From positions 1-64,000 of the IMG/VR virus record IMGVR_UViG_3300042305_001986: DNA of 64,000 nucleotides. The stretch is one strand, 5' to 3'. Shown here one piece after another: positions 3,012 through 63,804 of this stretch. Every line of letters starts with the position of its first letter. The stretch's first letter is position 1. The notes beneath the pieces are model-generated. The model worked only from the letters and a program-made list of their open reading frames with translations, did no database searches and was not told where the DNA came from. This DNA is from a virus. The position numbers were made by a program, and so were the translations under genes.

Positions 3012-4838
3012 TTATTGACAATCTTGACAACTTTGTTGTGATGATAAATAAGTATATGATACATTACCTGGATTAGTAACTACCGCTTGTACGGTCCAAC
3101 ACTGTCCATTAGTGGTACGAACTACCTGACCTATATTCAACCCTGATGGTCCGATCATTGCCGAGGTAGTTAAATCACCACACAAACCAATTCTGTAATA
3201 AGTATCTAAAATTACATCATCACAACAAGTCCCTTCATATTCTATGTTCAAATTTTGACTTGGTAATAGTTGACTTGTTGGGACAATTGATCCCTCAATA
3301 ACACATCTAGCCAATGAAACCGATTCACCCTGTTGTAGAGTAACAGTGTTACCCGAGCTACCATCTTCACAACTTGTATAGGATATAGTAATAGAAGGTG
3401 GACATAATTGACCCGAAACACATGCGTAACTTATTTGTGATCCATAATAACATTCACATTGTGGTGATGGTGTAGGTTCAGGAGCACATTGTTCATACGC
3501 ATAACCACTTGCGAATGCTTGTTGACATGAGGTATAGATTCCGTTTGTACCTGTTGATTGACTTGGTGTATAACTAGCCGATCCTAATTGCGGTCCTTGA
3601 ATCTGATAAACAACTCCATCCAAAATAGCATAAGATCCATCAACCCACGAATTAAAACCACCCAGAAGATTAGCTTCTGTGTATATAGTAACACTCTCAG
3701 GATATCCAAATTCACAACACTGATTCAGTAACTTCCATTTGTAGACCGGTGTGTTTGTAGGTGTAACTGTAGGTGTTGGTGTTGGTGTTGATTGACAAGG
3801 ATACTCTTGAGTACACGCGTCACAATCACCAATACTTGCGGTAGAGTAACCGCTAAATGCAATGGTCTGTGGTTGATTTATCGATGCAACACCTAGTTGA
3901 TAACATTGTCCATCAACACCCACAACCATAGTTCCAACAGGATCACCCCCTAACATAGTCATATATTCAAATTGACCTGTAAAATTACAACAAGGTGTTA
4001 CTCTTCTAACAACAGCCCCATCTGTTGGTGTGTTGCTTGGTGAAGGAGTGACAGTTGCAGTAACAGTCTTAGTTGGTGTAACTGTTGGTGTTACTGTCTG
4101 TGTCGGAGTAGGTGTGACACATTGTGTAACAGTGGTACAATCAGTACATGAAGAGTATACTGTTGAAATAGTTGCAAGTGGTGTACCGGCAATTGATCCA
4201 TTCAATGCGGTTACAATATAACACTGAGCGGGATTCTGTTGGTTACCCGCCCAATAAAATGTTGATCCTATATTGATGGTATTAGTGTCAAAATCAAACA
4301 ATGTACTAATGGAGTGGTCAATACAACATCCTGAAATAGTAACCCAAAGAACTCTTTGTGTTGGAGTAACCGTAGGAGTTACGGTGTTTGTTGGTGTAAT
4401 AGTGGGTGTTTGAGTAGGTGATAAATTAGGTGTTGGTGTTATAGTTGAAGTAACTGTTTGTGTTGGTGTAATAGTATTTGTTATCGTAGGTGTTTGAGTA
4501 GAGGTTCTAGTAACTGTAGGTGTTACAGTTTTTGTTGGTGTAATAGTAGGAGTTACCGTATTCGTAGGTGTTATAGTTGGTGTAACCGTACTTGTCGGTG
4601 TTGGTGTTGGAGTAATAGTACTCACAGTTCCTTCACATACACATCCTGTGTCCCCTGAAATAACGTAACAATATTGGCCATCATAATTAATATATAATGA
4701 ACTATCAAATGTATACGGAAAATCATTGAATGTAATTCCAGTTACATAAACATATTCACTAAGACAATCAGATATATAAACATCATAATTTGTTACTCCG
4801 ATCGTTTCATTTTCTAAACCTACGACTATATTTGGCAT
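3012..4838 (-). CDS. Thr/Pro-repeat, Cys-rich mucin-like putative virion fibre/decoration protein (608 aa)
   Basis: Three TPT(V/I/N/Q)T tracts separating CC..CY..CxxC modules; no signal peptide; in an operon with similar genes. Confidence 0.7.
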   Translation of the reverse strand: MPNIVVGLENETIGVTNYDVYISDCLSEYVYVTGITFNDFPYTFDSSLYINYDGQYCYVISGDTGCVCEGTVSTITPTPTPTSTVTPTITPTNTVTPTITPTKTVTPTVTRTSTQTPTITNTITPTQTVTSTITPTPNLSPTQTPTITPTNTVTPTVTPTQRVLWVTISGCCIDHSISTLFDFDTNTINIGSTFYWAGNQQNPAQCYIVTALNGSIAGTPLATISTVYSSCTDCTTVTQCVTPTPTQTVTPTVTPTKTVTATVTPSPSNTPTDGAVVRRVTPCCNFTGQFEYMTMLGGDPVGTMVVGVDGQCYQLGVASINQPQTIAFSGYSTASIGDCDACTQEYPCQSTPTPTPTVTPTNTPVYKWKLLNQCCEFGYPESVTIYTEANLLGGFNSWVDGSYAILDGVVYQIQGPQLGSASYTPSQSTGTNGIYTSCQQAFASGYAYEQCAPEPTPSPQCECYYGSQISYACVSGQLCPPSITISYTSCEDGSSGNTVTLQQGESVSLARCVIEGSIVPTSQLLPSQNLNIEYEGTCCDDVILDTYYRIGLCGDLTTSAMIGPSGLNIGQVVRTTNGQCWTVQAVVTNPGNVSYTYLSSQQSCQDCQ

Positions 4839-4862
4839 TTTAGTATTTTTTTTAATTATTAA

Positions 4863-6437
4863 TTATCCCTGTAAATCTATGAATCCATACATCGGGAAGG
4901 TTGGGTAATTTGTAATGTTTGTTCCATTTACAGAATAAGCAACATAATACAAATCAAGATTTCCGTAATCACTATTTGGTGTAAATGTGATCGTTCCAAG
5001 ATCAATATTATTACTAGCTATTACCGAAGGATCTACAATCGGTAATGCACCGTCTCCATCTAAGAAACCTGGTCTACCTTCACAAATTGCAAATCTATAA
5101 CCTTCAGCACAAATGTGGAATCTATATGTTTGACCTCTAGTAAGTGTTACTGTTGGATTAATCGTGACATTGAAATTCGCAAAATTCCAATAACTACTTT
5201 GAACATTAGTAATACTATAATCTCTAGTTGTTGAAGCGGGTCCTGTACAACAGTTAATTAACAGAGCCTTCATGGGTGTTGAAGCAACTGGGTTAGTATT
5301 ACCCACAAAACCGGCAACAAATTGATATATACAATCATTCAATGAGAAATACATTGTGTTGAGAGACGGAGAAGGATACTGTTGAATTTGTCCCAACATA
5401 CCATAAGTCAATGGTACATAACTACCGGCACTGAAAACATAAATTTGTGAATCATCTCCAGCAACAGTTGGTCTAGGATCATTAGATCTAAAACAAATGT
5501 TAGTAGTGATATAGTTTGAATTTGATTTGAAGCTTTCAATATCTTCACAATTCAAAAAGTCACAAATATGAATTTCTTCATCATTCGGTTCACCATAAAC
5601 TGAAGAAAACGCGTTAGCGATAAATCCAACAAACTGATTATATTTACTTTCAGCACTAAAACAAGTGAACCCTAGTGGTGATACCGTTGGTGTTACCGTT
5701 CTTGTTGGTGTAACTGTAGGTGTTTTTGTTGGTGTAGAGGTCTTTGTAAGAGTTGGTGTTGGTGTAAGTGTATTGTTAGGTGTTTGTGTGACAGTGGGTG
5801 TTGTTGTATTCGTTGGTGTTTGAGTTGGTGTTACCGGTGCCCCACAACAAATCTCATCTCGAAGATCAATATTTAATATACCATCACCTGATGGTGTTGC
5901 TTGACTGATAAGGATACTATTCAAATAAACACAACCAAGAATTTCATAAGGTTCGTTTAGTCCCAAACTTACCTCCGTAGAAGTTTGATCACATAAAGTA
6001 TAATTTACTTTTATAGTGTCAGGACAAAATGATCCAAACTGTACATCAGGACAATTATATAATAGTTCAATATCTTCATAACACAAACACTGTCCACTTG
6101 GTGTTACTGTAGGTGTTGTTGTTTTTGTTGGTGTTGTTGTTTTTGTTGGTGTTATTGTTGGTGTTACAGTATTGGTAGGTGTTGGTGTTGGCGTTACAGT
6201 ACCAACAACATTTTCACAGATACATCCAGTATCTGCTGAAATTATGTATTCATAACATGTTACATTCGGTAAACCAATCTCGTCAGAACTAAGGTCTACG
6301 TAAATTGGAAAGTCGGATGAAGTGATATCGTTGGCAACCAAAATGTTACCACCACCTGTACAGTTACTAACATATACATCATATAAAGTAGCTCCTACGG
6401 CCGCTTCAGTTAAATTTATTTCAATTGTTGTTGGCAT
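4863..6437 (-). CDS. Thr/Pro-repeat, Cys-rich putative virion protein (524 aa) with C-terminal NPTVTLTRGQTYRF beta domain
   Basis: N-terminal ~75 aa paralogous to 3012..4838 (YDVYvSxC..DFP..ISxDTGCxCE); two TP tracts; the NPTxTLxRGxTYxF motif is typical of phage fibre/baseplate proteins. Confidence 0.7.
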   Translation of the reverse strand: MPTTIEINLTEAAVGATLYDVYVSNCTGGGNILVANDITSSDFPIYVDLSSDEIGLPNVTCYEYIISADTGCICENVVGTVTPTPTPTNTVTPTITPTKTTTPTKTTTPTVTPSGQCLCYEDIELLYNCPDVQFGSFCPDTIKVNYTLCDQTSTEVSLGLNEPYEILGCVYLNSILISQATPSGDGILNIDLRDEICCGAPVTPTQTPTNTTTPTVTQTPNNTLTPTPTLTKTSTPTKTPTVTPTRTVTPTVSPLGFTCFSAESKYNQFVGFIANAFSSVYGEPNDEEIHICDFLNCEDIESFKSNSNYITTNICFRSNDPRPTVAGDDSQIYVFSAGSYVPLTYGMLGQIQQYPSPSLNTMYFSLNDCIYQFVAGFVGNTNPVASTPMKALLINCCTGPASTTRDYSITNVQSSYWNFANFNVTINPTVTLTRGQTYRFHICAEGYRFAICEGRPGFLDGDGALPIVDPSVIASNNIDLGTITFTPNSDYGNLDLYYVAYSVNGTNITNYPTFPMYGFIDLQG

Positions 6438-6449
6438 CTCTTTTATTTT

Positions 6450-8759
6450 TTATTCTAAAACATATGTTGTGTTTATGTTATTAAAGGTAGCTGGATCTCC
6501 ACTATATACCAAAACTGTTACTGGTTCGGGAATGAATCGTTCGACTTTAAACCAATCAGGATTATTTTCATCAATTAAACTTACTCTATGTGTGGCATAG
6601 TTTTTATAATACATTTGATTGGATGTTGTTCCTGTAGGTGTTAATGTTGTGTAAATATTAGGACAAGTAACAGAACTATATTCAGGGAAAAGTTGACTTG
6701 TGTTATTATAATTACGTGGGACCACTTCATTCAATTTCTTATGTGTCACCCAATAATGAGATACCAAATTAAAAATATTTGGGAGAAGAGTATAACCATC
6801 AGAAATAAACGGTATTGTTACCCTTGAACCGGTTGTTGAACTTGCGTTCAAGGTCAAAGTTAATCCATTGTTTATACTGTTTATTCTATTTTGAATACAT
6901 TGGTAAAAACAACTACTTGGTAAAATTCCGTTAGATAAATTATTATAGCTAATTTGTAAAGTATACCCATTTGTCTGTGTTAGACCGGTTGTAATTAAGG
7001 ACTGCTTTGGTAAAACATATTGTTTCAACGGTGTGTTATCACCACAAGGTACTGCGGGGTTACTTTCACTAAATCTTATTGAGAATGTATAGGTTTCATA
7101 ATAAGTCTGTAAAGAAGAATCAGTGAAATTTGGATTAAACGAATTCCGAGCACTTATATATGACTGATAATAGAAATCGAATAACTCGAAATTACTAAAA
7201 GTCATTAAAATTGTTGAACTTAAATTTCCCGAGTTATATGTTTTCGAAAAAGTTGTGGTACCCGTCATAGGATTTGCGCAACTGGTATTGGGAAGTTGTC
7301 CTAAAGGTGTTGAATTACATGAACCCGAAAAAGTTAAACTCGGAGGAAAAGTTTGTAAATTCCAACTATTGAATGGTGGTTGCCCAATAATAGAATTTGT
7401 ATTATTGATTGTTGGTCTAAAATTAAACGAATAACTCGATGATCCACCTGAAAATATAAAATTCAAAGGTTGGGGGCTTGTCCTCAACTCGGATGTATTA
7501 AAATAAGTTAATATATCATCATTCAATATTTCAGATAGAGAACATCCTGTCAAATTAAATGTAAGACCTTTTTTAGGTGAACATCCTGTATTATTTGTTG
7601 TTTGAGTAACGCTAGATAAAATAATTTTTGTTTGAGCTGATAAGTAACAAGACTCACAATCAAAATCTTCCAAACAAGTAAAGTTCAAATACCAATCAGT
7701 GTTAAAGTTTGATTGATTAGGTATAATTTCGAAAATTATGTGATCATTTGCATAATCAATATTAGTAAATCCTGTCATACAGATGACCTTTTTAAACGTG
7801 CGACTTTTAAAATTATCGTAATATAGAGTATTATCCAAGGGTACAGGATCTATCAATATAGGAAGTGTTGTAAAATTAGATGATGGTGAGTTATTTGTAC
7901 CCACTTTAAACCAATCCAATAAAAACGCGTTGTCATAATTCACACCAGAGTAAACAACTTTTATGTCATCGACAACGTCAACCCCGTTGAATGAGAATGC
8001 GATATAATTAGTACTTGGAGTAAGTTCCAACCAAACTTGTTGTACTTCGGGTATTGATTGAATATTACTTGCCGCTCCGGAAAATACCAAACAATGAGTA
8101 TATGCGGTCGCATATGGAGGACAATCTCCTGTTCCACCATCGTCACACGCATAAGCCTCAACCAACACCTCAATTGCTGGTAAACAATCTAACAAAGACA
8201 CTACCTGTACGCCATACAATTCATCGTCACTTGTAAATGTTATACCACTCAGAGAAATTGAATTAATTACAGGATAGTAAATTCCCGGTGGAACGAATAT
8301 ACCCGCAGCACCAAGTGCTGGTTGTTGATATTCGTAATCAAAAACAGGTGAACCAATTCCTGAAGTGAATTGAATTTCACCATTTTCATTATACCAATCA
8401 ATTGTGTAACCTGTTAAGTTGTTTTCACAAGATGCAGACAAAAGGCCAACATAAAGTCTACCTATACTTTGAGCGGAATATTGTGTAAACCCAAAAGAAC
8501 AATTTTCACACAAATCGCTACTTTGAACCGGAAGATAAGTACACACATCTTCATCAGTATTAATGATGTAAAGTTGTGTGGTTCCATCAGGGACACCCAC
8601 CAATGTAAATGGGCAACCATCTCCCGTCATATAAGAGATCAGTATTGGTTCCGTATTGATAGGATTGGCATATCCGTCTACGTTAGAATAAACATTAACT
8701 AAATCAGAAGTTGAAAAATCTCCTAAATCTGTTAAACAAAATTGTCCGATGAATGGCAT
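6450..8759 (-). CDS. Large Ser/Thr/Asn/Cys-rich putative virion structural protein (769 aa)
   Basis: Long ORF in the same operon; beta-rich composition; many (S/T)GxT motifs. Confidence 0.6.
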   Translation of the reverse strand: MPFIGQFCLTDLGDFSTSDLVNVYSNVDGYANPINTEPILISYMTGDGCPFTLVGVPDGTTQLYIINTDEDVCTYLPVQSSDLCENCSFGFTQYSAQSIGRLYVGLLSASCENNLTGYTIDWYNENGEIQFTSGIGSPVFDYEYQQPALGAAGIFVPPGIYYPVINSISLSGITFTSDDELYGVQVVSLLDCLPAIEVLVEAYACDDGGTGDCPPYATAYTHCLVFSGAASNIQSIPEVQQVWLELTPSTNYIAFSFNGVDVVDDIKVVYSGVNYDNAFLLDWFKVGTNNSPSSNFTTLPILIDPVPLDNTLYYDNFKSRTFKKVICMTGFTNIDYANDHIIFEIIPNQSNFNTDWYLNFTCLEDFDCESCYLSAQTKIILSSVTQTTNNTGCSPKKGLTFNLTGCSLSEILNDDILTYFNTSELRTSPQPLNFIFSGGSSSYSFNFRPTINNTNSIIGQPPFNSWNLQTFPPSLTFSGSCNSTPLGQLPNTSCANPMTGTTTFSKTYNSGNLSSTILMTFSNFELFDFYYQSYISARNSFNPNFTDSSLQTYYETYTFSIRFSESNPAVPCGDNTPLKQYVLPKQSLITTGLTQTNGYTLQISYNNLSNGILPSSCFYQCIQNRINSINNGLTLTLNASSTTGSRVTIPFISDGYTLLPNIFNLVSHYWVTHKKLNEVVPRNYNNTSQLFPEYSSVTCPNIYTTLTPTGTTSNQMYYKNYATHRVSLIDENNPDWFKVERFIPEPVTVLVYSGDPATFNNINTTYVLE

Positions 8760-8779
8760 ATCTTAATTATTTTTTTTTA

Positions 8780-9964
8780 TTATTGTGGTGAATCAAACGA
8801 ATAACCTTCAACATCAGGATCCAAACAAGGTAAAGTGGTTGGAGTGACAGTTGGCGTCGGAGTTTGAGTCGGTGTAAGACTTATTGTTGGAGTAATTGTC
8901 GGTGTGACACTTGGACTTGGAGTCGGAGTTGCCTCTGCAATATATGAATAACAACCCATCGCTTCAGCACAATCTATGAAGTCTGATGTACAATCAGAAC
9001 ATGGGATTGTTGGTGTTGATGTTGGAGTTGGAGTTTGAGTACTTGTTCTTGTAACAGTCGGTGTTGGTGTTGGTGTTGTGGTACATGCGGGACATATAGA
9101 GTCACTACACAACAAAGCGTCAGGTCCTGAATAGAAACCATTTAGACCGTCACCACCTGGACCAAATGGTCTATAACAATTTCCTTCATATAAAATTATA
9201 CCACCATTAGCAACCCAACCACCTTGTTGTGTTGCAGTCAATGGTACTTGAATTCCAATGTTGGGTAATCCATCACAACAAGGTCTGTAAATCCACAATG
9301 CATTTGGTATTACACTACCTTCAAATTTAACAATACCATATCTGTCAACAACAAATGGTATACCATCAGAAACAAAGTTTGAAATTACTGAGTAATTCTT
9401 TTCTACATCAGAATAATTTTTGGTCGGTAACCTTAAACTTGTTGATCCTGAGGTAAATCCTGCTGGTATACTTATGTTTGCGTATAAATCAAACTCAGTT
9501 CCCGCGGTTGATTTGAGCGTATTAACAAATTCAAAATAAGTATCACCCGTAACAACACTATTACTATAAATTGTATAAATAGCATTTGTTGATCCTGACG
9601 TATATTCAGATCTAAGAGTTAGAGTAAGACCTGTAGTTACACTACTTGGTGTTGGTGTATTTGTTGGTGCCGGTGTTCTTGTTGGTGTTGAAGTTTGAGT
9701 AGGTGTTGGTGTAGGTGTTGTAATATAAACTTGTCCTGTACATTGTGCTAATGTCGTTGGCTCTTCAACCAAATATTCAAAACAATCAACAGATCCACTA
9801 AGTACCTGTTCAACATTGAAGAAATATGGAAAACCACTATAGGGTATTGTGTCAATCGGAGACCCCCAACTTCCTGAACCACACTCTCGGACGTAAATCT
9901 CAAAATTGTAAGATCCACCCGATAGGTTTGTGTTGGTTATAGATATTTGTCCTTGTGTTGCCAT
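8780..9964 (-). CDS. Thr/Pro-repeat, Cys-rich putative virion protein (394 aa)
   Basis: Three TP tracts; central domain and CC..CY module shared with 10021..12138; TATTTAT motif at 9978-9984. Confidence 0.7.
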   Translation of the reverse strand: MATQGQISITNTNLSGGSYNFEIYVRECGSGSWGSPIDTIPYSGFPYFFNVEQVLSGSVDCFEYLVEEPTTLAQCTGQVYITTPTPTPTQTSTPTRTPAPTNTPTPSSVTTGLTLTLRSEYTSGSTNAIYTIYSNSVVTGDTYFEFVNTLKSTAGTEFDLYANISIPAGFTSGSTSLRLPTKNYSDVEKNYSVISNFVSDGIPFVVDRYGIVKFEGSVIPNALWIYRPCCDGLPNIGIQVPLTATQQGGWVANGGIILYEGNCYRPFGPGGDGLNGFYSGPDALLCSDSICPACTTTPTPTPTVTRTSTQTPTPTSTPTIPCSDCTSDFIDCAEAMGCYSYIAEATPTPSPSVTPTITPTISLTPTQTPTPTVTPTTLPCLDPDVEGYSFDSPQ

Positions 9965-10020
9965 TTAATTTTTTTTTATAAATAGATTAATTTAGGTAAA
10001 ATTTTGATTAATTTAAAAAT

Positions 10021-12138
10021 TTATCTACGAGGAGTTGGTGTTGGGGTTGTAGTTGGTGTTACAGTGATTTTATCAGATGAACTAGATACCGACGGAGTTG
10101 GTGTTTTTGTTCTAGTGACTGTAGGTGTGGGAGTTTTGGTTTTAGTAACAGTTGGAGTAACTGTGCTGGTAATTGTTGGAGTTACCGTTTGTGTTGGTGT
10201 AACAGTTGAAGTCGTTGTTGGTGTTGGTGTCAAATATTGGAATCCACCAGAACATTCAATAATATATTCTTGGAATGAAGATTCACACTCTAAGAAATAT
10301 GGTGTTGTATTTGACTCACACTCCAAATAAAAATTTTGAGTGGTAACTTCACATTCAATAATAAATTCTTCAGTAGAACCCTCGCATTCTAAAAAGAAAG
10401 TTTGTGATGTACCCGAACAAGTCAAAAAATAATCAGATGTTGTACCAACACAGTCTATGAAAAATTCTGAAACAGTAGATGAACACTCCAAAAAGTTAGG
10501 ATTTGTAATAGATGGTGTTATTGTATTGGTAACCGTAGGCGTAATCGTACTTGTGAGTGTAGGTGTTGGAGTTGATGTTTTGGTTGGTGTTGTTGTTGGA
10601 GTTGGTGTTGGTGGAATATAACATGAACAAAATCTTTGTTCAGTACAATCACCAAAAAAGTCAGCACCGTATCTTAATCCAATGTAGGTAGATGTAATAG
10701 GTCCTTGGATTGGTGAATAACAGGTTCCTTCATAAACAATACCTCCACCCAAAGAATGCCATTCAAACGTAGTAACTTCTACCTCAATGTAATCAGGACC
10801 TGGATCACTTCTATCACAACATTTTTCAAAATATACAAATCCTGTTATTGGTGTATAATCTTCAAAACTAACCTTAACATATTTGTTGAAACTAGTGTTT
10901 GGTCTTGTTGATTCTACATTTACAAATGATGTAGATCCCTTCTCAATTTCGGTATTATAATCCACATCCCTCAAAAGAACTTCAGTTCGACCCGTAAGTG
11001 AACCGGCATTTATAGTAACACCTGTTGAAACTACAATTTGCTGGTCTGTTTGTTTATTATAAAGAATATTATCAAATGTAACTGTTATATTTACATCAGA
11101 TATTGATGATGCGGTAAAAGTATAAATAATTCTTGTTGATCCGGAACCATAATCTGAACCAAAATCTATTGTTATCTCACTTAATGGCGTTGATGAAGGT
11201 GTTGTTGTTGGTGTTAATGTATTCGTAGGTGTTATAGTATTTGTAGGTGTAACACTATTCGTGAGTGTTGTTGTTGGTGTTAATGTATTCGTAGGTGTAA
11301 CAGTACTTGTTGGTGTGACAGTACTTGTTGGTGTGACAGTATTTGTTGGTGTTAATGTATTCGTAGGTGTAACAGTATTCGTTGATGTTGTCGTTGGTGT
11401 TACACTTGGTGAAAGGCCTGGTGTAACAGTATTTGTTGGTGTTATTGTAACAGTATTTGTTGGTGTAACAGTATTTGTTGGTGTTATTGTAACAGTATTT
11501 GTTGGTGTCCTTGTAACGGTATTACTAGGTGTATTTGTAGGTGTTTTTGTATTTGTGGGTGTAATAGTTGGTGTAACACTACTCGTTGGAGTTATTGTAG
11601 GTGTGACCGTTCTTGTTGGAGTGTTAGTTGGGGTAGTGGTTGGAGTAGTTGTTGGTGTTCTTGTAGGTGTTCTTGTTGGTAATGGTGTTCTTGTTGGTAA
11701 TGGTGTTGCTGTACTTGTTGGTGTAAGAGTTGGAGTTTGTGATGGTATTATTACAATCGGATTATCTGTGGAACAACAATCAACAGAAGATTGATCATAA
11801 ATCGATTCAATTATACCTATCTTTATTTTTTCCGTAATAGGGAGAATTTGTAATCCGTAATCACTAGATATATTAAATTGTCCGAGATAAGATCCTATTT
11901 TTTTTGTGTAATGTGAAGTAAATTGGTAAGATAGTATAATTTTTGAATCAGTTATTTCATAACTGGCAACATCTTTCAAAATTCTTTTAACACCTGTGTT
12001 TTCCTCTTCCATTGAAAAGAAAATGGTAGAACCTGTAATATTGGTTAATAAACCGTTATACAGATTTCTACCATCAACAAGTAATTCAACCTTGAGAATT
12101 GGTAAACTAGAGGATTTTTTTATAAAAAAATTTATCAT
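10021..12138 (-). CDS. BppU-N-like domain + long Thr/Pro stalk + Cys-repeat putative virion protein (705 aa)
   Basis: ~180-aa TPTNTV-type tract; 8x 11-aa FLEC repeat; TATTTAT motif at 12147-12153. Confidence 0.7.
10234..10494 (-). repeat. Eight degenerate 33-nt (11-aa) coding repeats, consensus (F/I/Y)(L/I)ECxxxxxx(F/Y)
   Basis: [87 protein letters not shown]. Confidence 0.9.
11190..11745 (-). repeat. Coding tandem repeat, mostly 18-nt period ([18 protein letters not shown])
   Basis: Recurrent ggtgt(a/g)acagta(t/c)ttgtt units on the + strand; boundaries approximate. Confidence 0.9.
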
Positions 12139-12155
12139 AATATATTATAAATATA

Positions 12156-14464: not shown

Positions 14465-14466
14465 AT

Positions 14467-15180: not shown

Positions 15181-16160
15181 GATTCAACAATTTTCTCTAG
15201 AAAATTAAGTGTGTAATCAAAATCATAGTAAATTGGTAATTCATTATTCAAAAAAATAGGGGCTTCAATATATTTTTTATACAAATTGTCGTCATTATCT
15301 ATTCTCTTGATTAACACCAAAAAATCATTCAAATCCGAAAAATTATGCAAATTTACGAAACTATCAGGGTTAAATCCCTCCTCTAAAATATATTGATTCC
15401 CGTAGAAAATAGGAATAGCACCCGAAAAAAAAGCATGATATAACTTTTCCTGCAATATATAATCAGTATTTGTGTAGTGTATTGCGATATTAAATTTATA
15501 CTTTTGAAAAAACTGTATTTTTTCTCTGTAAGTCAATCCATCGTTTCTTCCAATATAAACTTGATTCAACCATTGATATTTGTTCAGTTCATCTTTTGGA
15601 TCTATATTTTGTCTCCAAGGGCCTGATGACGTAACCATCTTATATTCATTTAATTTGTCAAAGACTAAACCTCTAAATTTATTATCTGATGCCTGTGTTA
15701 TTGAACAAAATCCTGTGTTTCTATTCTTAATTTGATCAATATTCCTCTTTTGAGTCAACCAAGATAATGGACTATCAACCAATCTTGATTCGTCATATAA
15801 TGTCCACACATCGAACACACCAGATGGTTGTCTCAAATATCTTTCGTGTTCAAATTTATTGTAACCTATCGCCCACTGATTGTCATTTGCAAATATAGGT
15901 CCTGAAAAATCGGCGACTTCACCTGAAACATAAATAAATTTTTTATTCTTATCATTCTGTCTATATTCTGTAGGTAAATGATTGGTATATGTATCGATTT
16001 GTTCTCTATTATAGTGTAGATCCGAGTGTATTATAATGTCAGGATTAATTGGATCAATAAGTACATTATATTTTTTGGATAGTACAAATTTAAAGTAACT
16101 CATCCAACTGTGTTGACCGTGATTTGGAAACCCTTGTCTAGTTATTCTGATAGTTTTCAT
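15177..16160 (-). CDS. GT10-like (alpha-1,3-fucosyltransferase-type) glycosyltransferase
   Basis: FIYVSGE, FCSIT..FRGLVFDKLNEYK, KIQFFQKYKFNIAI..DYILQEKLYHAFFSGAIPIFYG..FNPDSFVN. Confidence 0.8.
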   Translation of the reverse strand: MKTIRITRQGFPNHGQHSWMSYFKFVLSKKYNVLIDPINPDIIIHSDLHYNREQIDTYTNHLPTEYRQNDKNKKFIYVSGEVADFSGPIFANDNQWAIGYNKFEHERYLRQPSGVFDVWTLYDESRLVDSPLSWLTQKRNIDQIKNRNTGFCSITQASDNKFRGLVFDKLNEYKMVTSSGPWRQNIDPKDELNKYQWLNQVYIGRNDGLTYREKIQFFQKYKFNIAIHYTNTDYILQEKLYHAFFSGAIPIFYGNQYILEEGFNPDSFVNLHNFSDLNDFLVLIKRIDNDDNLYKKYIEAPIFLNNELPIYYDFDYTLNFLEKIVES

Positions 16161-16857
16161 TAATAAATTGAGTTAATTTTATGGTATTATCGTTGAAGGG
16201 TCCATTATCATGAATTATAAACGCATTTAAATTTAACAATGTTACTTTATTATTTTCGATTTCTACATAGTCTTTATTATCTAACGTACTGAAAAAGAAG
16301 TTTTTTTCTTGATCGATGATAATATCATCATTCAATAGATATTGAATTGTCCATCTTCCTTGATCATCAATACCCGTTTGATATTCTTTAGTAATAATAT
16401 CCTCTAAATGATAGATTATTTTTTCAGTGTATCCGAAATATGTACCTGAGTTAAGATATTTGGAATCGTTTATAGACCTTTTTTTTTCATATAAGTGAGT
16501 ATAGTTAGTCGGTGGCCACAAACCCTTCTCAGCTCCCATAACTATACTACAATTCAATGAATGAAAATCTTCAACTATATTTTTTGGTGAACCGATAAAA
16601 TTTGTGTCCGTGGCATCTATAAATAGTATATATTTATACTTCCCAAGAATTTGAGATTTAATGTATTCTAAAAGATTTACTATTTTATAGTAATACAGTT
16701 TGTCATAGTAAGATCCATTCTTAACCAAACCAGAATTTCTGACTATGTGAATATCCTCAGATGAAAAATATTTCAACGCGTTTTTATAAAAAGATGGCTC
16801 GTAATAATCAGGATAGTCAAATAATACTGTAATCAGGCAAATTTTTTCATTTTCCAT
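16138..16857 (-). CDS. PLOD/LH3 glycosyltransferase-domain-like protein
   Basis: ILFIDATD, IVMGAEKGLWP, KYLNSGTYFG, DDQGRWT match the PLOD GT-domain pattern; start taken at MENEK (16857), next to the upstream stop, rather than 16887. Confidence 0.75.
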   Translation of the reverse strand: MENEKICLITVLFDYPDYYEPSFYKNALKYFSSEDIHIVRNSGLVKNGSYYDKLYYYKIVNLLEYIKSQILGKYKYILFIDATDTNFIGSPKNIVEDFHSLNCSIVMGAEKGLWPPTNYTHLYEKKRSINDSKYLNSGTYFGYTEKIIYHLEDIITKEYQTGIDDQGRWTIQYLLNDDIIIDQEKNFFFSTLDNKDYVEIENNKVTLLNLNAFIIHDNGPFNDNTIKLTQFINENYQNN

Positions 16858-16858
16858 A

Positions 16859-17491
16859 TTAATTATCCAATTGTCTATAGTATTCATTAATTAAGTTACT
16901 ATCTGATTGAAACGGTATACCATTTCCGAATACTTTTATAGGTATTTCCTTTTCCCAAAAAAAAGAAATTTCCTTACCTTTATTTTTCATCAAGATTTCA
17001 TCACTTCTAACATCATTTTCAATCCAAGAAAATTTTGGAAAAATAACAACTTCATTGTTAATAATTTCTAAAAATTGTTTATGATGGGCATTACCACGAT
17101 ATTTATTTTGGTATAAAAACGAAAATTCATCATATTTTGATGGTGACGCAATAAACCCCGCAAGTGATATTTTAGTCAACAAGTCTGTTAATTCCAAAGG
17201 ATTAAATACATCTTCAATTGTGTGTGAGCAAATAGAGAAATCAAATTTTCCATAGGTTTCGACATATGATAATATCTCACCCCATGTGGTTTTATCTTCC
17301 AAATTCAAATTAAAAAAAGTAACATCATCCTTATTGACAACAATCGAATCGGCAACAAATTTACACTCAGGATAAGACCAAAACATGTAAGATGCACCAA
17401 CATCAACTGTTTTCAAATTGTTGTCGGATATATATTTTTTTATGTCTTCCCTTTTACCACCGGTGGTGTTATATGTCCAACTTTTTATCAT
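16859..17491 (-). CDS. SAM-dependent methyltransferase-like protein
   Basis: TVDVGAS motif I; KFDFSICSHTIED. Confidence 0.65.
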   Translation of the reverse strand: MIKSWTYNTTGGKREDIKKYISDNNLKTVDVGASYMFWSYPECKFVADSIVVNKDDVTFFNLNLEDKTTWGEILSYVETYGKFDFSICSHTIEDVFNPLELTDLLTKISLAGFIASPSKYDEFSFLYQNKYRGNAHHKQFLEIINNEVVIFPKFSWIENDVRSDEILMKNKGKEISFFWEKEIPIKVFGNGIPFQSDSNLINEYYRQLDN

Positions 17492-17493
17492 CT

Positions 17494-18054
17494 TTAATCA
17501 AAAAAAACAACACCAGTCCCTGATACATGACCCAAGTTGGTGATTTCCATTTTATCTTCATTTATTGTCTCCCAAAACTGAGACATTTCATTATTCAAAC
17601 GTATGTCGTCTAATATCAATATTCCATTATAATTAATTTTTTTCAAATAGTTCAAAAAAATAAGTTCAAAATCTCCTGTATGGAAAGTATCTAACAGAAT
17701 TATTTTGGAATCTAATATGATTTCTTTGTATTTATCACTCATTACGTCATCGACTATAAACTCAACATTTTGCGGTTTTTCTTTCAATTGTAATTGATCT
17801 GTCAAATTAAATGAGTAAACTTTATTTGTTTTATTTGCGGCCAAAGCCAATGCTGAACAACCTAATAAAGTACCGACATCAACAAATGATACACCATCAA
17901 AATAATTGGATAAAAAAGTTAGTAGTCGATAGTGTTCCTGAGATGATTTTTGTAAAAAATAATTCTGATATTCTTCATTATTGATTAAAGAATAAGATTC
18001 CATTTTCAACTCATCCAAGTCTTCATTTTTTAAATTGAGAAATAAATCTTTCAT
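17494..18054 (-). CDS. SAM-dependent methyltransferase (Methyltransf_24-like)
   Basis: FVDVGTLLGCSA, LLDTFH, ILILDDI. Confidence 0.75.
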   Translation of the reverse strand: MKDLFLNLKNEDLDELKMESYSLINNEEYQNYFLQKSSQEHYRLLTFLSNYFDGVSFVDVGTLLGCSALALAANKTNKVYSFNLTDQLQLKEKPQNVEFIVDDVMSDKYKEIILDSKIILLDTFHTGDFELIFLNYLKKINYNGILILDDIRLNNEMSQFWETINEDKMEITNLGHVSGTGVVFFD

Positions 18055-18058
18055 TTTT

Positions 18059-19303
18059 TCATAAATTTCCTGTCATTCTTTCACCCCACCCCTTAGATTC
18101 AGAGTGTGGCCAAACAACCCAATATGCTGGTTTTTCTTCAGCATTGAAAGTTCTCCAAACTTTACAATACCCGTCAGGATCTCTAAAAAACCCTTGAATT
18201 TCGTGTTTATCCGCGTCCTTACGGTATATTGTTTCATCCTTGTGATCATGGAATGCAACAACCCAAAAATCATAATCTCTTTCGGGAACCTGATCATAAG
18301 CCACATCAATACAATGTTTGAATTGTTTTGTGAATGAGTTGATCCAGTCTTCCTCCGTTTCGTAATTATTTGGATTTGGTGGATATTCCTTATCTAAAGT
18401 GTATTTTTGAACCGCTCTTTTACTGAAAAGAAGCCCTGAATACTTTTCATAATCCCTCAAAGTTCTGACGGGACCAAATCCAAACTGACCTAAGTCAACC
18501 ATTTCTTCACCATCCATACCGAAGAGTTGTCTGTTTCTTTTATGTGAATGATTGTTCTTTTCAACCCACTTCTTATCGTCATCCCACTGTTTGGTTCGTC
18601 CTTTTCTGGTGTATTCGTGATATACAACTACCTTGTGAGGGTGGAATAAATCATATCCATGAGTGTATGCTCTTGCCGCGATACTGATTTCTTCTCCGTG
18701 AAAATAATATTCAGGATCGTGTTGAACTTCTTTTGAGAATATCCCGAGGGTAAAACAAAAATGTGCTGAGTAGAATCTCGCAGGAACTGGTTTTGTTAAT
18801 TCAGACCAACCAGGTATTGTTTCAGGTAGGAAGAAAACTGCACCTTCGGGAATAAATCTGTCGAATGCCATTCTCCAAGGATCCCTTGCTCTTCCAGCAG
18901 GATCATTATCGGGATCAAATGAACTTACATATCCTGTTAGAAGTGGTTTTTCATGTCCATCTTCTTGGAGTTGATCAATCATATCAATCAAAGTGGTGTC
19001 CCACCCCTTTTCAAATCTCATATGTGAATCGATTTGCAGGGTGTAGGTTTCGTTTTTATAAAGTTGTTGGATAAGGTGTCTCGCCCAACAAGCTCCGTTG
19101 GATTCTGTGTGAGGAATATCTAAAATTCTGAATCTGTCGTCTCCTCTGAATTCTTGTAATTTATCAAAACCATCCTCTTCACTGTATTGTTTTGCAATAC
19201 CGAATCTTAATTTTTCTGGCCTGTCGGCATTTGCGATCATGTCTCGAACTGTATTCTCTAATTCGGGATCTCTGTATGAAGCTATTTGGACAAATATGGT
19301 CAC
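18059..19303 (-). CDS. GT60-like polypeptide alpha-N-acetylglucosaminyltransferase (Gnt1/modB/TcOGNT family)
   Basis: TIFVQIASYRDPEL, SNGACWARH, LQIDSHMRFEKGWD (DxH), FHGEEISIAARAYTHGYDLF, VYHEY; GTG start. Confidence 0.85.
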   Translation of the reverse strand: MTIFVQIASYRDPELENTVRDMIANADRPEKLRFGIAKQYSEEDGFDKLQEFRGDDRFRILDIPHTESNGACWARHLIQQLYKNETYTLQIDSHMRFEKGWDTTLIDMIDQLQEDGHEKPLLTGYVSSFDPDNDPAGRARDPWRMAFDRFIPEGAVFFLPETIPGWSELTKPVPARFYSAHFCFTLGIFSKEVQHDPEYYFHGEEISIAARAYTHGYDLFHPHKVVVYHEYTRKGRTKQWDDDKKWVEKNNHSHKRNRQLFGMDGEEMVDLGQFGFGPVRTLRDYEKYSGLLFSKRAVQKYTLDKEYPPNPNNYETEEDWINSFTKQFKHCIDVAYDQVPERDYDFWVVAFHDHKDETIYRKDADKHEIQGFFRDPDGYCKVWRTFNAEEKPAYWVVWPHSESKGWGERMTGNL

Positions 19304-19365
19304 TTTGATTATGTTTGAAAATTTATTTTATTCAAATCATAAATTAAGTTTTGAAGAGGTAAATA

Positions 19366-20586
19366 TTAACTATTAACTAATCCAGATTGCCAATAAGTAG
19401 AACCATCAACAGTTATTGTGTTGCTGGAGTTGAAACCTTGAACTTGATATGTACTGAAATTATTCAGGTCTATAAAATTCAATTGAGATCCATCCCACGC
19501 TTCAATTCCCATTAAGGTCGCAACTCTATCGATTCTATTGAATATTCCTATATCAATGCCAGAACTCATAGTTCCACCGGCAAAGTTCAGACCAACAACT
19601 TTCCAAGTTCCTCCAAAATTTCCAAAAACCGCGGAACCCGAATCACCGGGTATTGATGGGTCAGGACAATCTTGATCTACTCTAGTATAGGCAATTTGAT
19701 TTGCAAATCTCTTACCCCAAACGTATCCGTCGTTGTTTTTTTTATATCCATTAACCATAGATGAATAATTTACATATAATGCTTTTAGTCCACACAATGA
19801 ACCTTCTTTCGGTCCTGATGATCTACCTGAGGCGGCTAAAGGAATATTATTTGTTAAAATAGAATCAAGCTCAGCGGTTGTTGCAAATACAGGAGGTGTT
19901 GTGAAACTTAAACCATATTGTTTGAAAGATTCACTATTTGACAATACACTTTCTTTCAACGCTACTAAACAACAATCAATTTCAGCCGAACCACTATTAT
20001 AAAGTAAAGTACAATACATAACACGGCCTAAGTTATAAAAATCTGTTTCGTAAGATGAACTTTCTCCTGGTTGATAAATTTGTTCAATTAGGGAGTTATA
20101 ATCAAACGTACAAGGTGGTTCTTTACAAAGGTCATTTGCATTAAAATGTACTTTTAGTGCAACGTGTAAATTAGTAACACCAACCAACGCACCTGTTTCA
20201 GTGTGTTTGGCCAAAAAACCAAGAGTTCCAATACCATCAGTTGTTTTTCTTATTGAAATACCACCCTTTATTGGTCTTATATAAGATCTATTTGGTACTG
20301 GATTAAAGATACAGGTTGAATTAAATTCTGTTGGACAAGGATGAACGTTCAGTGTTGTACTTTCGACAACATCGGTCTTCAAAATAGTCCCACCAACATT
20401 TATTCTCGATGGTATTAGATCACTTTGAGTTAAATTTTCTATTGGTTTTTTTTCGTCAACAAAAAAAACTATAGATAATTCATCAGTAACCACACCATTT
20501 TTGATTTTTTTTCCCAAACAAATTGAATCATTGTTATATTCTATCTTCAAATTTTCAATTGATTGGAGTAAATTGTTCGTTTCCAT
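19366..20586 (-). CDS. Trypsin-like (S1, Nal1-type) serine protease with N-terminal pro-domain
   Basis: Triad motifs TNLHVA, IDCCLV, PGDSGS; pro-region FVDEKKP..LIPSRI..TDVVE. Confidence 0.85.
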   Translation of the reverse strand: METNNLLQSIENLKIEYNNDSICLGKKIKNGVVTDELSIVFFVDEKKPIENLTQSDLIPSRINVGGTILKTDVVESTTLNVHPCPTEFNSTCIFNPVPNRSYIRPIKGGISIRKTTDGIGTLGFLAKHTETGALVGVTNLHVALKVHFNANDLCKEPPCTFDYNSLIEQIYQPGESSSYETDFYNLGRVMYCTLLYNSGSAEIDCCLVALKESVLSNSESFKQYGLSFTTPPVFATTAELDSILTNNIPLAASGRSSGPKEGSLCGLKALYVNYSSMVNGYKKNNDGYVWGKRFANQIAYTRVDQDCPDPSIPGDSGSAVFGNFGGTWKVVGLNFAGGTMSSGIDIGIFNRIDRVATLMGIEAWDGSQLNFIDLNNFSTYQVQGFNSSNTITVDGSTYWQSGLVNS

Positions 20587-20588
20587 TT

Positions 20589-22985
20589 TTACAGCGTATT
20601 AAATCTAACAAAGACAGTTCTTATACCTGAAGCGGTAGGTGTTTCTGAAATAGAAGGCGTAATTGATGGTGTTATAGTAGTTGTCGGTGATACGGTTGGA
20701 GTTTGAGTCTGAGTTGAAGTTTGAGTTGGTGTTGGAGTAGTTGTCACCGTTGGTGTCGTCGTAACTGTTGGTGTCTGTGTTGGAGTTTGAGTGGGGGTTA
20801 CACTTGGTGTTTGTGTTGGAGTAAGTCCGGGTGTAACTGTTTGACTTGGAGTTAAAGATATTGTTGGTGTGATACTCGGAGTAATAGATGGTGTAGGGGT
20901 TTGTGTAGGTGTTTCTGTGGGTGTTACTGTTGCCGTGGGTGTAGGTGTTTCTGTGGGTGTGGGAGTAATTGTTTGAGTAGGTGTTATTGTTTGGGTAATT
21001 GAAGGTGTAAGTGTTGGTGTTACTGTTGGCGTATTTGTTGGAGTTTTGGTTACCGTTGGTGTAACTGTAGGTGTTGGGGTTGGTGATGGTGTTGGTAAAG
21101 GTTCGAAATTTTCACAATCCAAACAGAAATAATCAAAGAGATCATAAGTATTTCTTAAAATTCTGTTATTGTGTTGAACTTGTCCACCATTCAATGGTTC
21201 GGCATAGAATCTAAATTCTGAAATTGCACCATCAAAAGTTCCCCCAAAGTACTTTTCTAATAAAATACCCGTCTCTAATTGCGAAAGTGATGTTCCTGAC
21301 AAAACTGTATCGGGAAATAACTCAGGATCCTGTTGGTAAGTGGTTCCTGTACAACTATTAAATGTTAGATTTTCCCTTAATCCTTGAGTACCACCACCCC
21401 ACGACATTGAATAACTAACACCGATTTGTTTTTCTTTTTCGGTATTCAAAGGTCTTGGAATAATTTCCTCGAAGTTTTCTACGATCATAAACAAATAACC
21501 ATTGAGATATACTTTCAAAGATCCAAGTCTCTTATCTTTTGAGTCAATGAAATCTCTATTCATAACAACTCTTTGGACGGGGTATTCTTTTTCTTGGTCG
21601 TGAGTATAAGGTGGTTGAATTAAACTTAAAGTGTCACCTCTTTCAGTTGCAGGGTAAATCAAGGAACTCATTTCCCCAATTCCACCTTCATAGAATAAGT
21701 CACACCCCTCGTAGAAAGTATATCGTTTGAATACCACATCAACCTGTAACCATTTTTCTGTGTTTAAGAAGTCGGTCTGATTGGTACTTCCCGAACAAAA
21801 ATCGTAAATTCCAATATCGGAATAAATGTTGTTGATTGTATATCCTGTTAAGTAATATTCGTGTGTTTCACAATCCGCAGTTGTTTGACATGCTCCCGTG
21901 ATGGTAATTGTTCTAATATTAATTTTTGGGTTTTTTGGGTCACCCGATAATCGTATGGCAAATGAATTTGATAATACATCTATCGTTGGATCTTTGGGTG
22001 GTATGGCAACCACTTTGTGTTCACAAGCATTTCCACATACAGTACAATCCGTTCCTTGATAGGTATCACCTGATATTGGATAAACATTGTAACAATCTGA
22101 AGTGAATGCAGTCAAAGTACAAGAACAAGTTTTCAAACAACTTAATTCTTCGGTTACTCGTGTGTACGCTGTGTAACTTTCAGGATGACCTGTAGCATAA
22201 TGATAGAATTTATCTTCCGCCCTTGTCCCCATATAGAAGAAAATTCCTGCGTTATTTGGATAAATTTCGTTTAGAGTGGTCTCACCAGCACCCGGTTCAA
22301 ATTCATCATATATTCTTGGTTTTATTACCGTCTCCATAGACCATCCAAGCTCATATCTTTCTGGTAATATTTCCCAATCATATTCGTATAGTTTGTAAAA
22401 ACCTTGATAAAAACCACCATATAATTCTTGGTAGTATCCTATACCCGCCTCTTGTTTTGAAACTATATTATATAGGGTGTTTGCCGTTATACCTGAAAAT
22501 CTTGAGTTGGGTGATCTTACATTTGATGTGACCGAAATTAATTTAAGATGTCTATCGTATGTTAATCTGTCAAATTTGTTAATTGAATCTAATAATCCTC
22601 TTGTGTAATAGAGTGTTTCACCACTCATTCTGTCTGTGAGTCCATTGTCAATTCCTGTTAATCCAACATCACAAATTCCACTCAACGAGTAACAAGATGC
22701 GTCAACCAAATCAGGGAAGGGATAAAATTTATCTGATATTATATTGTTGTCACTTTCAAAATCATCGTAATATAATTCAAATTGGGGTGAACAATCGGGA
22801 TCCCACAATCTTATATTAACAGGTAATACATTTCCGTCATCAAAACCGATTAAATTTGTGGAAAATACGGTCTCCTGATCGTACTCAATCTCATCGTTAG
22901 ACAGATAAAAATCATAGTACTCAGAAGTATCCAATCTCAATTTAATGGAGTTGTTGGAATGATTTCGGATATTTTGTATTCCCAC
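20589..22985 (-). CDS. Virion structural protein with LamG/concanavalin-like elements and C-terminal Thr/Pro tract
   Basis: LKVYLNG and FDGAISEFRFYAEPL (LamG-like); ~155-aa TP tract; start placed at GTG 22985 downstream of the TATTTAT motif (ORF track start 23015). Confidence 0.65.
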   Translation of the reverse strand: MGIQNIRNHSNNSIKLRLDTSEYYDFYLSNDEIEYDQETVFSTNLIGFDDGNVLPVNIRLWDPDCSPQFELYYDDFESDNNIISDKFYPFPDLVDASCYSLSGICDVGLTGIDNGLTDRMSGETLYYTRGLLDSINKFDRLTYDRHLKLISVTSNVRSPNSRFSGITANTLYNIVSKQEAGIGYYQELYGGFYQGFYKLYEYDWEILPERYELGWSMETVIKPRIYDEFEPGAGETTLNEIYPNNAGIFFYMGTRAEDKFYHYATGHPESYTAYTRVTEELSCLKTCSCTLTAFTSDCYNVYPISGDTYQGTDCTVCGNACEHKVVAIPPKDPTIDVLSNSFAIRLSGDPKNPKINIRTITITGACQTTADCETHEYYLTGYTINNIYSDIGIYDFCSGSTNQTDFLNTEKWLQVDVVFKRYTFYEGCDLFYEGGIGEMSSLIYPATERGDTLSLIQPPYTHDQEKEYPVQRVVMNRDFIDSKDKRLGSLKVYLNGYLFMIVENFEEIIPRPLNTEKEKQIGVSYSMSWGGGTQGLRENLTFNSCTGTTYQQDPELFPDTVLSGTSLSQLETGILLEKYFGGTFDGAISEFRFYAEPLNGGQVQHNNRILRNTYDLFDYFCLDCENFEPLPTPSPTPTPTVTPTVTKTPTNTPTVTPTLTPSITQTITPTQTITPTPTETPTPTATVTPTETPTQTPTPSITPSITPTISLTPSQTVTPGLTPTQTPSVTPTQTPTQTPTVTTTPTVTTTPTPTQTSTQTQTPTVSPTTTITPSITPSISETPTASGIRTVFVRFNTL

Positions 22986-23000
22986 GGCTTCTTTTTTAAA

Positions 23001-23026
23001 ATAAATACATCTCACCTTGTATTTAT
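23001..23026. promoter_or_regulatory. Back-to-back putative late promoters (TATTTAT on each strand)
   Basis: ATAAATACA-tctcacct-TGTATTTAT inverted repeat between divergent genes 22985(-) and 23042(+). Confidence 0.65.
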
Positions 23027-23041
23027 AGATAAAAAAACTTA

Positions 23042-39765: not shown

Positions 39766-39766
39766 A

Positions 39767-63781: not shown

Positions 63782-63804
63782 CTAAATAAACTTAATTTTC
63801 AAAA

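Follow-up and report, generated by a model that had tools for sequence, protein, structure and literature searches.

A block of minus-strand genes in an uncultured phage from lake water probably specifies a cytoplasmic, mucin-type O-glycosylation system which, as read from the genes, would modify (Thr-x)n repeat stalks on the phage's own proteins. The block was found in bases 1–64,000 (the window, the whole stretch of DNA analysed) of the 118,536-base IMG/VR record IMGVR_UViG_3300042305_001986, a fragment of a T4-like jumbo phage estimated to be 39% complete. It brings together a homologue of the GT60 family of polypeptide N-acetylglucosamine (GlcNAc) transferases, seven further genes of the same operon, the last of which fuses an HtrL_YibB domain to a GT2-like glycosyltransferase (GT) domain (HtrL+GT2), and five proteins with long Thr/Pro tracts (Table 1). 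What was established directly is that the enzymes belong to their families, that the arrangement of the genes is conserved, and that GT60 and TPTxTPT repeats are distributed together.

An earlier note on this DNA had reported five tract genes around the operon, and all five open reading frames (ORFs) were present on the minus strand at the places it gave. With a tract defined as ≥65% Thr plus Pro in 20 residues, these were exactly five among the 268 ORFs (≥60 amino acids) of the whole record, and all five occurred ≤11 kb from the GT60 operon. At the DNA level, the TPTxTPT pattern had 36 sites in the window (0 in 100 shuffles), every one of them on the minus strand and inside the five tract genes. 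The tracts sum to 715 residues, including 314 Thr and 157 Pro, and a Thr was followed by a second Thr at position +2 in 261 of 308 cases and at position +1 in only 27; the repeat is therefore (Thr-x)n, where x is mostly Pro or Val, and also Gln, Ile, or Asn. The repeats are imperfect in DNA (59–100% matches), and the pattern is thus maintained at the protein level. The tracts link Cys-rich globular modules, some of which are common to several of the proteins, including a 175-residue module in Thr/Pro proteins 3 and 4 and the N-terminal 75 residues of Thr/Pro protein 2, with 41% identity to Thr/Pro protein 1. As a separate observation, the ORFs starting at 3012, 4863, 6450, 8780, and 10021 have 32, 21, 22, 14, and 16 Cys, respectively, which is unusual for proteins of the bacterial cytoplasm, and the tracts often start immediately after a Cys.

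The candidate initiating enzyme (18059–19303) matched PF11397 significantly over the full length (251 bits compared to a cut-off of 21; E-value, 2.4e-74) and phrog_24687 (1.5e-170), and the GT60 assignment made in the earlier note stands. PF11397 was the sole Pfam family on the 414-residue protein, with no ricin-like domain. Two motifs, D92-S93-H94 and H221-P222-H223, were invariant in 34 of 34 aligned GT60 homologues; the first is presumably the metal-binding DxH motif of the GT27/GT60 GT-A fold. Sequence and profile searches of the PDB returned no match for the GT60 protein, the GT60 profile, HtrL+GT2, or the family of the small protein at 2628–3002. In the available text of PMC8724618, GT60 enzymes are alpha-GlcNAc-transferases acting on polypeptides, with which Dictyostelium and Trypanosoma cruzi begin their mucin-type glycans; they differ from the animal GT27 mainly by the absent ricin-like domain, while Skp1 glycosylation is initiated by a soluble, cytosolic GT60 form, with a bifunctional GT2+GT74 protein acting next. 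Two sources, in the portions available, describe phage GTs whose glycans are built on 5-hydroxymethylpyrimidines (bioRxiv 10.1101/2023.12.21.572611; PMC13326640), and a thymidylate-synthase-family gene, ambiguous between ThyA and a hydroxymethylase, occurred in four of four near-complete relatives, as would suit transferases that decorate modified bases of the phage DNA against restriction. This role is extremely unlikely, however, as the GT60 enzymes of PMC8724618 (in the part available) act on polypeptides, the operon sits amid tract genes and not amid genes of nucleotide metabolism, and a role in DNA modification leaves the association with the repeats unexplained. Tet/JBP was without a match in five records, in a search that had no positive control.

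The eight genes from 19303 to 12156 form a tightly coupled operon, as had been proposed, with gaps or overlaps of 2–29 bases. The labels previously given to the GT60 enzyme, the PLOD-like GT, the GT10-like protein, the methyltransferase at 13835–14464, and the HtrL domain all correspond to Pfam matches above the curated cut-off. For the fusion, this applies to the HtrL part, with the GT2 half falling below cut-off (18 compared to 23.3 bits), and the two genes after GT60, described as methyltransferases, had only weak matches, either below cut-off (17494–18054) or through homologues (16859–17491). The ‘GT-A’ label for 14467–15180 gained no support from Pfam, with no match for the protein or for five of five homologues. 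Consistent with the claim that signal peptides are absent, a crude hydropathy scan, which is not a dedicated predictor, revealed no signal-like or clear membrane segment in the 16 proteins of the block.

The pairing of a GT60 enzyme with a two-domain fusion resembles the layout of the Skp1 pathway, in which GT60 precedes the bifunctional GT2+GT74 protein (PMC8724618, available text), and could suggest that the acceptor is hydroxyproline, as in that pathway or in plant extensins, with Pro hydroxylated first and GT60 acting like Dictyostelium Gnt1. Against this, Thr is the invariant alternating residue of the tracts, while Val, Ile, Gln, or Asn can stand in for Pro. Further, prolyl 4-hydroxylase (PF13640) was found neither in the phage's own record, with its 39% completeness, nor in any of five near-complete relatives, by a search that was positive in three of 14 control genomes. 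The lack of any hydroxylase match and the constancy of Thr in the repeat, as opposed to Pro, favour Thr as the candidate acceptor, and hydroxyproline is very unlikely.

The proposal that GT60 and Thr/Pro tracts belong together held up in a controlled test, named in the earlier note as one that could refute it, of whether the two are distributed together among relatives. In viral contigs, a scan identified 188 stretches with GT60 relatives, of which 80 loci were kept (68–97% identity; contigs up to 322 kb). A tract ORF occurred ≤10 kb from GT60 in 70 of these 80 loci, nearly always on the same strand, and TPTxTPT DNA was present in all 24 GT60-bearing records of ≥100 kb (2–164 sites, compared to 0–2 for the reversed pattern). 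Among cultured phages, GT60 was confined to four of 50,697 records, and all four possess TPTxTPT sites (XacN1, 51; Xoo-sp13, 51; CM1, 22; RAS14, 22). The nearest GT60-less cultured relatives, selected by the capsid of the source phage (LR756508, Mel-JY01, and immuto) or by the polymerase of XacN1 (RsoM2USA and SCTP-2), had none (0 of 5; no site in 1.62 Mb). A terminase-based control set consisted of only 21 near-identical loci and was not used.

The association was also explored in the reverse direction, using arbitrary viral records ≥40 kb drawn by TPTxTPTxTPT DNA (n = 38 searched) and records drawn by an unrelated periodic pattern (n = 20). A GT60 homologue occurred in 14 of the 38 repeat-drawn records and in none of the 20 controls (Fisher p = 0.0011). 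Nine of the 14 homologues had 70–75% identity and five had 29–57%.

Across 82 related loci (the 80 viral loci, XacN1, and Xoo-sp13), the operon divided into an invariant and a variable part. GT60 and the HtrL+GT2 fusion were both present in 82 of 82 loci, and in every case GT60 came first, with HtrL+GT2 after it on that strand. The other six genes of the operon occurred in only 6–28 loci. The distance between the two ranged from 3 to 9,842 bases, accommodating 0–10 ORFs, and in five loci the genes were directly adjacent. When loci were instead centred on the polymerase, HtrL+GT2 was present in 36 of 40 with ≥9 kb upstream, the exceptions being fragments or cases with GT60 elsewhere. In cultured phages, full-length HtrL+GT2 occurred only in the same four phages that have GT60. 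The 266 ORFs between GT60 and HtrL+GT2 grouped into 51 families, and 48 family representatives were matched, with matches to methyltransferases, GT2, GT10, GT25, GT34, GT7C, UDP-galactopyranose mutase, UDP-GlcNAc 2-epimerase, carbamoyltransferase, sulfotransferases, and a nucleotidyltransferase. By these sequence matches, the intervening genes represent a predicted glycan-building and tailoring repertoire. Directly after HtrL+GT2, 74 of the 82 loci have a member of the 2628–3002 family, in most cases starting ≤50 bases from the HtrL+GT2 stop; members are either stand-alone or form the N-terminus of a longer, often Thr/Pro-bearing protein. With GT60 and HtrL+GT2 invariant, the rest variable, and this family next, four parts thus make up the core of the system: GT60, an exchangeable tailoring cassette, HtrL+GT2, and a small domain. 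Two points were absent from the earlier note: HtrL+GT2 is the invariant partner of GT60, and the other six genes of the operon are one of many interchangeable cassettes. As a side observation, the HtrL domain had 5,259 homologues at E ≤ 0.001, and some forms of 777–793 residues fuse an FkbM- or TylF-type methyltransferase to HtrL+GT2; the best 120 of the 5,259 carry generic labels, with two named O-methyltransferase.

Counterparts were found in bacteria. A genome scan identified 177 cellular GT60 relatives, of which 80 loci were kept, and TPTxTPT DNA occurred in 32 of these (477 sites), compared to 0–1 loci in shuffles and one with the reversed pattern. HtrL+GT2 was present in 35 of the 80 loci, and VgrG occurred within 10 kb in 16. 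In five of five loci scanned for it (Ralstonia, Paraburkholderia, Achromobacter, Trinickia, and Paraherbaspirillum), the ORF with the tract was the type VI spike VgrG, which ends in 49–146 residues of pure (TP)n and lies 4–6 kb from a GT60 homologue in which the final ~90 residues of the phage enzyme are missing. VgrG is a component of a contractile injection machine, and it resembles a phage tail part in being assembled in the cytoplasm and exiting without the Sec pathway. The closest cellular pairs to the phage genes occurred in Saprospiraceae and Lewinellaceae assemblies (GT60, 62–67% identity; HtrL+GT2, 48–59% identity), some contigs of which may be phage DNA binned with bacteria. On a 3.0 Mb Saprospiraceae contig, tract ORFs of 1,847 and 680 residues stand directly upstream of GT60, with 71 TPTxTPT sites; the contig could point to the lineage of the host or to a prophage. 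One ORF of the Saprospiraceae and Lewinellaceae set had a sub-threshold match to a crAss muzzle protein.

An operon of transferases with a variable middle could also remodel an envelope glycan of the host (lipopolysaccharide (LPS), capsule, or another surface polysaccharide), for instance blocking superinfection, with the nearby tracts as flexible linkers. The cassette varies like an O-antigen locus; HtrL_YibB, in the source text available, is named after a gene of the LPS-core cluster and occurs in lipooligosaccharide (LOS) outer-core loci; and GT clusters of jumbo phages have been interpreted as capsular-polysaccharide modification systems (PMC7824862, in the part available). The phage further encodes a TonB-dependent receptor, a cargo protein of the type IX secretion system (T9SS), and a second GT1/GT2-type set on the other strand. 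Set against this are the absence of any membrane segment in the eight operon proteins (crude hydropathy), the absence among them, by Pfam, of a flippase, polymerase, or lipid-carrier priming transferase, and the polypeptide specificity of GT60 enzymes (PMC8724618, available text). Remodelling of the envelope also leaves the tracking of the repeat unexplained, whether in cultured phages (four of four compared to none of five), in repeat-drawn viral records (14 of 38 compared to none of 20), or in bacteria with VgrG, and is considered unlikely.

The cultured Xanthomonas jumbo phage XacN1 differs from the source phage in host phylum and GC content, and the operon had no match among cultured phages by megablast. 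XacN1 nonetheless has the same gene order, with a GT60 (ORF334, 47.5% identity to the source phage) and an HtrL+GT2 (ORF330, 43% identity) on either side of a cassette that consists of a carbamoyltransferase, and its TPTxTPT sites lie in very large ORFs beside genes for baseplate wedge, tail-sheath completion, and virion peptidase; ORF325, ORF369–372, and ORF384 are among its large tract ORFs. According to the available text of the XacN1 paper (PMC5852040), the virions hold at least two glycoproteins and the genome has two glycosyltransferases, ORF328 and ORF334; that text draws no connection between ORF334 and either GT60 or Thr/Pro repeats. The literature searched contained no paper that connects GT60 with such repeats in phages, in agreement with the earlier note, which knew of no described mucin-type pathway in a phage, and one preprint names GT60 among viral CAZy genes without comment.

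Several results weigh against glycosylation of the tracts. Ten of the 80 viral GT60 loci lack a tract ORF within 10 kb (several are cut upstream), the tracts are ~60 kb away from GT60 in some records, and one 94 kb GT60-bearing fragment (32% complete) is without any TPTxTPT. In the other direction, five of eight near-complete tract-bearing viral records lack GT60, and 48 of the 80 bacterial GT60 loci have no TPTxTPT within 10 kb. A single abundant family of lake phages accounts for many of the viral loci, which makes the counts non-independent, and no GT60-less member that could serve as a control was found inside that family, in which GT60 seems to be universal. Thr/Pro tracts can be plain, unmodified linkers. 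The location on the virion is weakened by the lack of any structural Pfam or PHROG match for the tract proteins, and the available text of the XacN1 paper does not name the glycoproteins of that phage, which has a second glycosyltransferase (PMC5852040).

The loci without tracts would also suit glycosylation of phage proteins at other sites, such as the capsid, the tail-tube subunits, or the 2628–3002-family protein, with the tracts co-occurring by shared ancestry. Glycosylation of mycobacteriophage virions is on record in the literature available, and the 2628–3002-family gene that follows HtrL+GT2 in most loci is mostly without a tract. Glycosylation at such other sites is unlikely, in that the link to tracts recurs in unrelated lineages, namely the viral GT60s of 29–57% identity and the VgrG-(TP)n of Burkholderiaceae and relatives, and that TPTxTPT is absent from the nearest GT60-less relatives. 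None of the four alternatives (DNA bases, hydroxyproline, the host envelope, or other protein sites) explains the association with the repeat across unrelated lineages.

For glycosylation of the tracts, we infer an acceptor, a sugar, an order of steps, a location on the virion, and a purpose, as follows. The soluble GT60 enzyme would act in the cytoplasm of the host, either ahead of particle assembly or while it proceeds, and add the first N-acetylhexosamine (HexNAc) to alternating Thr of the (Thr-x)n tracts, in which the five proteins offer 314 Thr. The precedent of the family suggests that this sugar is alpha-GlcNAc, donated by UDP-GlcNAc. The HtrL+GT2 fusion (12156–13838), as a putative core-extending bifunctional enzyme, would attach the next one or two sugars, and the six cassette genes (two further transferases, up to three methyltransferases, and one without a match) would finish and methyl-cap the glycan. 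Since the cassettes are interchangeable, related phages would bear different glycans on the same kind of stalk. By joining Cys-rich modules, the tracts would form stiff, protease-resistant, sugar-coated stalks on modular proteins that are probably appendages of the particle. The purposes suggested in the earlier note, such as shielding, adhesion, or bait, are conjectural. More tentatively, and with somewhat more doubt than conviction, GT60 and HtrL+GT2 could be the conserved centre of a cytoplasmic mucin-type pathway that is widespread in prokaryotes and viruses and coats the (Thr-x)n stalks of machines leaving the cell without passing the secretion apparatus (phage appendages and VgrG), with the cassette giving each strain a glycan ‘serotype’; the protist GT60 enzymes, and by way of them the logic by which animals initiate mucin-type glycans, would then have prokaryotic or phage relatives with the same job.

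The predicted system has features of several known ones. With the GT60 enzymes of protists (the Golgi pp-alphaGlcNAcT of Dictyostelium and the OGNT of T. cruzi), it shares the Pfam family, a DxH-type motif, the absence of a ricin-like domain, and dense Thr/Pro candidate acceptors; the PTVT-type repeats of Dictyostelium PsA are an example of such a mucin-like acceptor. Unlike those enzymes, the phage GT60 is viral, predicted to be soluble, and without a Golgi membrane anchor; it is invariably accompanied by an HtrL+GT2 fusion, together with a tailoring cassette that varies, and would act in the bacterial cytoplasm. Like the phage tracts, the Pro/Thr ‘PT-box’ linkers of glycoside hydrolases secreted by bacteria are extended Pro/Thr segments between globular modules, and they are O-glycosylated in some native hosts. 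That modification takes place outside the cytoplasm, by membrane-bound mannosyltransferases, unlike the phage case, in which both enzymes and substrates are without export signals. Mycobacteriophages and giant viruses, in the sources available, likewise use virus-encoded transferases on their own structural proteins without a secretory pathway. The acceptors in mycobacteriophages are the C-termini of capsid and tail-tube proteins. These viruses differ from the source phage in using other transferase families, and neither GT60 nor a mucin-like repeat substrate is known from them. The Skp1 pathway of Dictyostelium, Toxoplasma, and Pythium (PhyA, Gnt1, and PgtA) is similar in its soluble, cytosolic enzymes and in a GT60 initiator followed by a two-domain transferase with a GT2-like half (PMC8724618, available text). 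It differs from the phage system in that no prolyl hydroxylase was found in the latter, which has hundreds of potential sites compared to one, and in that the non-GT2 half of the phage fusion is HtrL_YibB.

Glycosylation of phage-particle proteins is known from few cases only, and mucin-type initiation by GT60/GT27 is treated as a eukaryotic trait in the available text of PMC8724618. If the proposed pathway operates, mucin-like glycoproteins would be made in the bacterial cytoplasm by many abundant lake phages, by the four cultured Xanthomonas/Stenotrophomonas jumbo phages, and for Burkholderia-like VgrG spikes, with glycans that differ from strain to strain. It would bear on phage stability, host recognition, and the grazing and immune recognition of phages, as well as on the shielding of injected spikes and the origin of mucin-type glycosylation. 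Tract glycosylation is directly testable, since XacN1 and Xoo-sp13 are cultured and glycoproteins have already been detected in XacN1 virions (PMC5852040, in the part available).

Table 1. Features of the glycosylation block and its immediate surroundings; positions are those of the window and loci are the 82 related loci.
Feature	Position	Strand	Details
Small domain protein	2628..3002	-	124 aa
Thr/Pro protein 1	3012..4838	-	608 aa; four tracts (130 residues); 32 Cys
Thr/Pro protein 2	4863..6437	-	524 aa; two tracts (98 residues)
Cys-rich protein without Thr/Pro tract	6450..8759	-	769 aa; among the tract genes
Thr/Pro protein 3	8780..9964	-	394 aa; three tracts (109 residues)
Thr/Pro protein 4	10021..12138	-	705 aa; five tracts (231 residues); Cys-containing modules; directly 3' of the HtrL+GT2 gene
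HtrL_YibB + GT2-like fusion	12156..13838	-	560 aa; PF09612 2e-9 at residues 3-253; GT2 0.0029 at residues 295-391
CmcI/rhamnosyl O-methyltransferase-like methyltransferase	13835..14464	-	209 aa; PF04989 3.1e-9, above cut-off; in 28/82 loci
Protein without Pfam match	14467..15180	-	237 aa; in 13/82 loci
GT10 (fucosyltransferase-family) C-terminal domain protein	15177..16160	-	327 aa; PF00852 2.2e-10, above cut-off; in 11/82 loci
PLOD-type GT-domain glycosyltransferase	16138..16887	-	249 aa; PF25342 2.7e-16, above cut-off; in 14/82 loci
Possible methyltransferase	16859..17491	-	210 aa; no own Pfam match; 3/4 homologues match Methyltransf_23, E 0.014-0.07; in 9/82 loci
Possible methyltransferase	17494..18054	-	186 aa; Methyltransf_24 E 0.039, 15.3 bits compared to cut-off of 26.3; in 6/82 loci
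GT60-family polypeptide GlcNAc-transferase homologue	18059..19303	-	414 aa; predicted soluble; candidate initiating enzyme; PF11397 2.4e-74
Protease-like protein	19366..20586	-	406 aa; between Thr/Pro protein 5 and GT60; phrog_20754 ‘protease’ 1.2e-14
Thr/Pro protein 5	20589..23015	-	808 aa; (Thr-x)n tract at residues 635-787, C-terminal to a globular part of 630 residues; heads the block
TATAAATA, T4-type late-promoter-like octamer	23020..23027	-	just 5' of Thr/Pro protein 5

The start of Thr/Pro protein 5 is uncertain, with a GTG at 23015 or a GTG at 22985 (the choice of the earlier note); an ATG at 23010 is out of frame. Homologues of this protein occurred in 29 of 82 related loci, and its N-terminal part had an Atlas-only lead, to be taken as a lead only, to a Laminin_G_3/ConA-like fold (score high). 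The TATAAATA motif upstream of it is a weak hint of a late promoter and was not clearly enriched (14 in the window compared to 6.9 expected; one of 100 shuffles reaches 14). The neighbouring protein at 19366–20586 had weak matches to Trypsin and NAL1_N, below cut-off, and the gene was present in only six of 82 loci. At the other end of the block, the N-terminus of Thr/Pro protein 4 had 35% identity to the 2628–3002 protein (E 1e-16). An Atlas lead from the 2628–3002 family to BppU_N (10% share in one cluster) gained no support from Pfam, with a match in one of 33 members (E 0.14). The 6450–8759 protein had no Pfam or PHROG match, and the idea of an N-terminal domain common to it and the tract proteins was dropped, with no significant BLAST similarity.

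When contigs from four lake runs were compared with the window, their summed depth relative to neighbouring genes rose up to ~100-fold at the tracts and ~10-fold over GT60 (17686–19019), which implies that these sequences recur, at ≥90%, in many further genomes of those lakes. Contigs of the four runs also had many joints across tracts, which were taken as mapping artefacts, and one lake metagenome contig had a 30-base in-frame deletion at 8887, inside the gene for Thr/Pro protein 3.

The stretch was contained in 20 lake-water metagenome runs, with no RNA run among those listed, and the window has a GC content of ~30–40%. In addition to the block, it has genes for a family-B DNA polymerase (3–2561), a portal, a large terminase, and a major head protein resembling T4 gp23. 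Among cultured or named phages, the closest capsids (42–44% identity) came from Microcystis phage Mel-JY01, Flavobacterium phage immuto, and an uncultured phage of 484 kb. At 38173–42550 there are a 530-residue protein with a T9SS C-terminal sorting domain (2.7e-9) and a 927-residue TonB-dependent receptor (CarboxypepD_reg, Plug, and barrel domains), which together indicate a Bacteroidota host and support the host suggested in the earlier note.

Divergent from the operon, the plus strand has a second set of GT-like genes, at 25516–26730 (weak GT4/GT1), 29620–30684 (GT1, 4.6e-7), and 30681–31520 (GT2-like, 4.2e-9), interspersed with genes for an exonuclease, a dUTPase, and PhoH. A 247-residue protein with an N-terminal DUF3721 domain (2e-12) is encoded at 23042–23785, divergent from the first tract gene and 26 bases away from it. 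A tmRNA gene with a 21-residue tag was identified by ARAGORN at 63392–63782.

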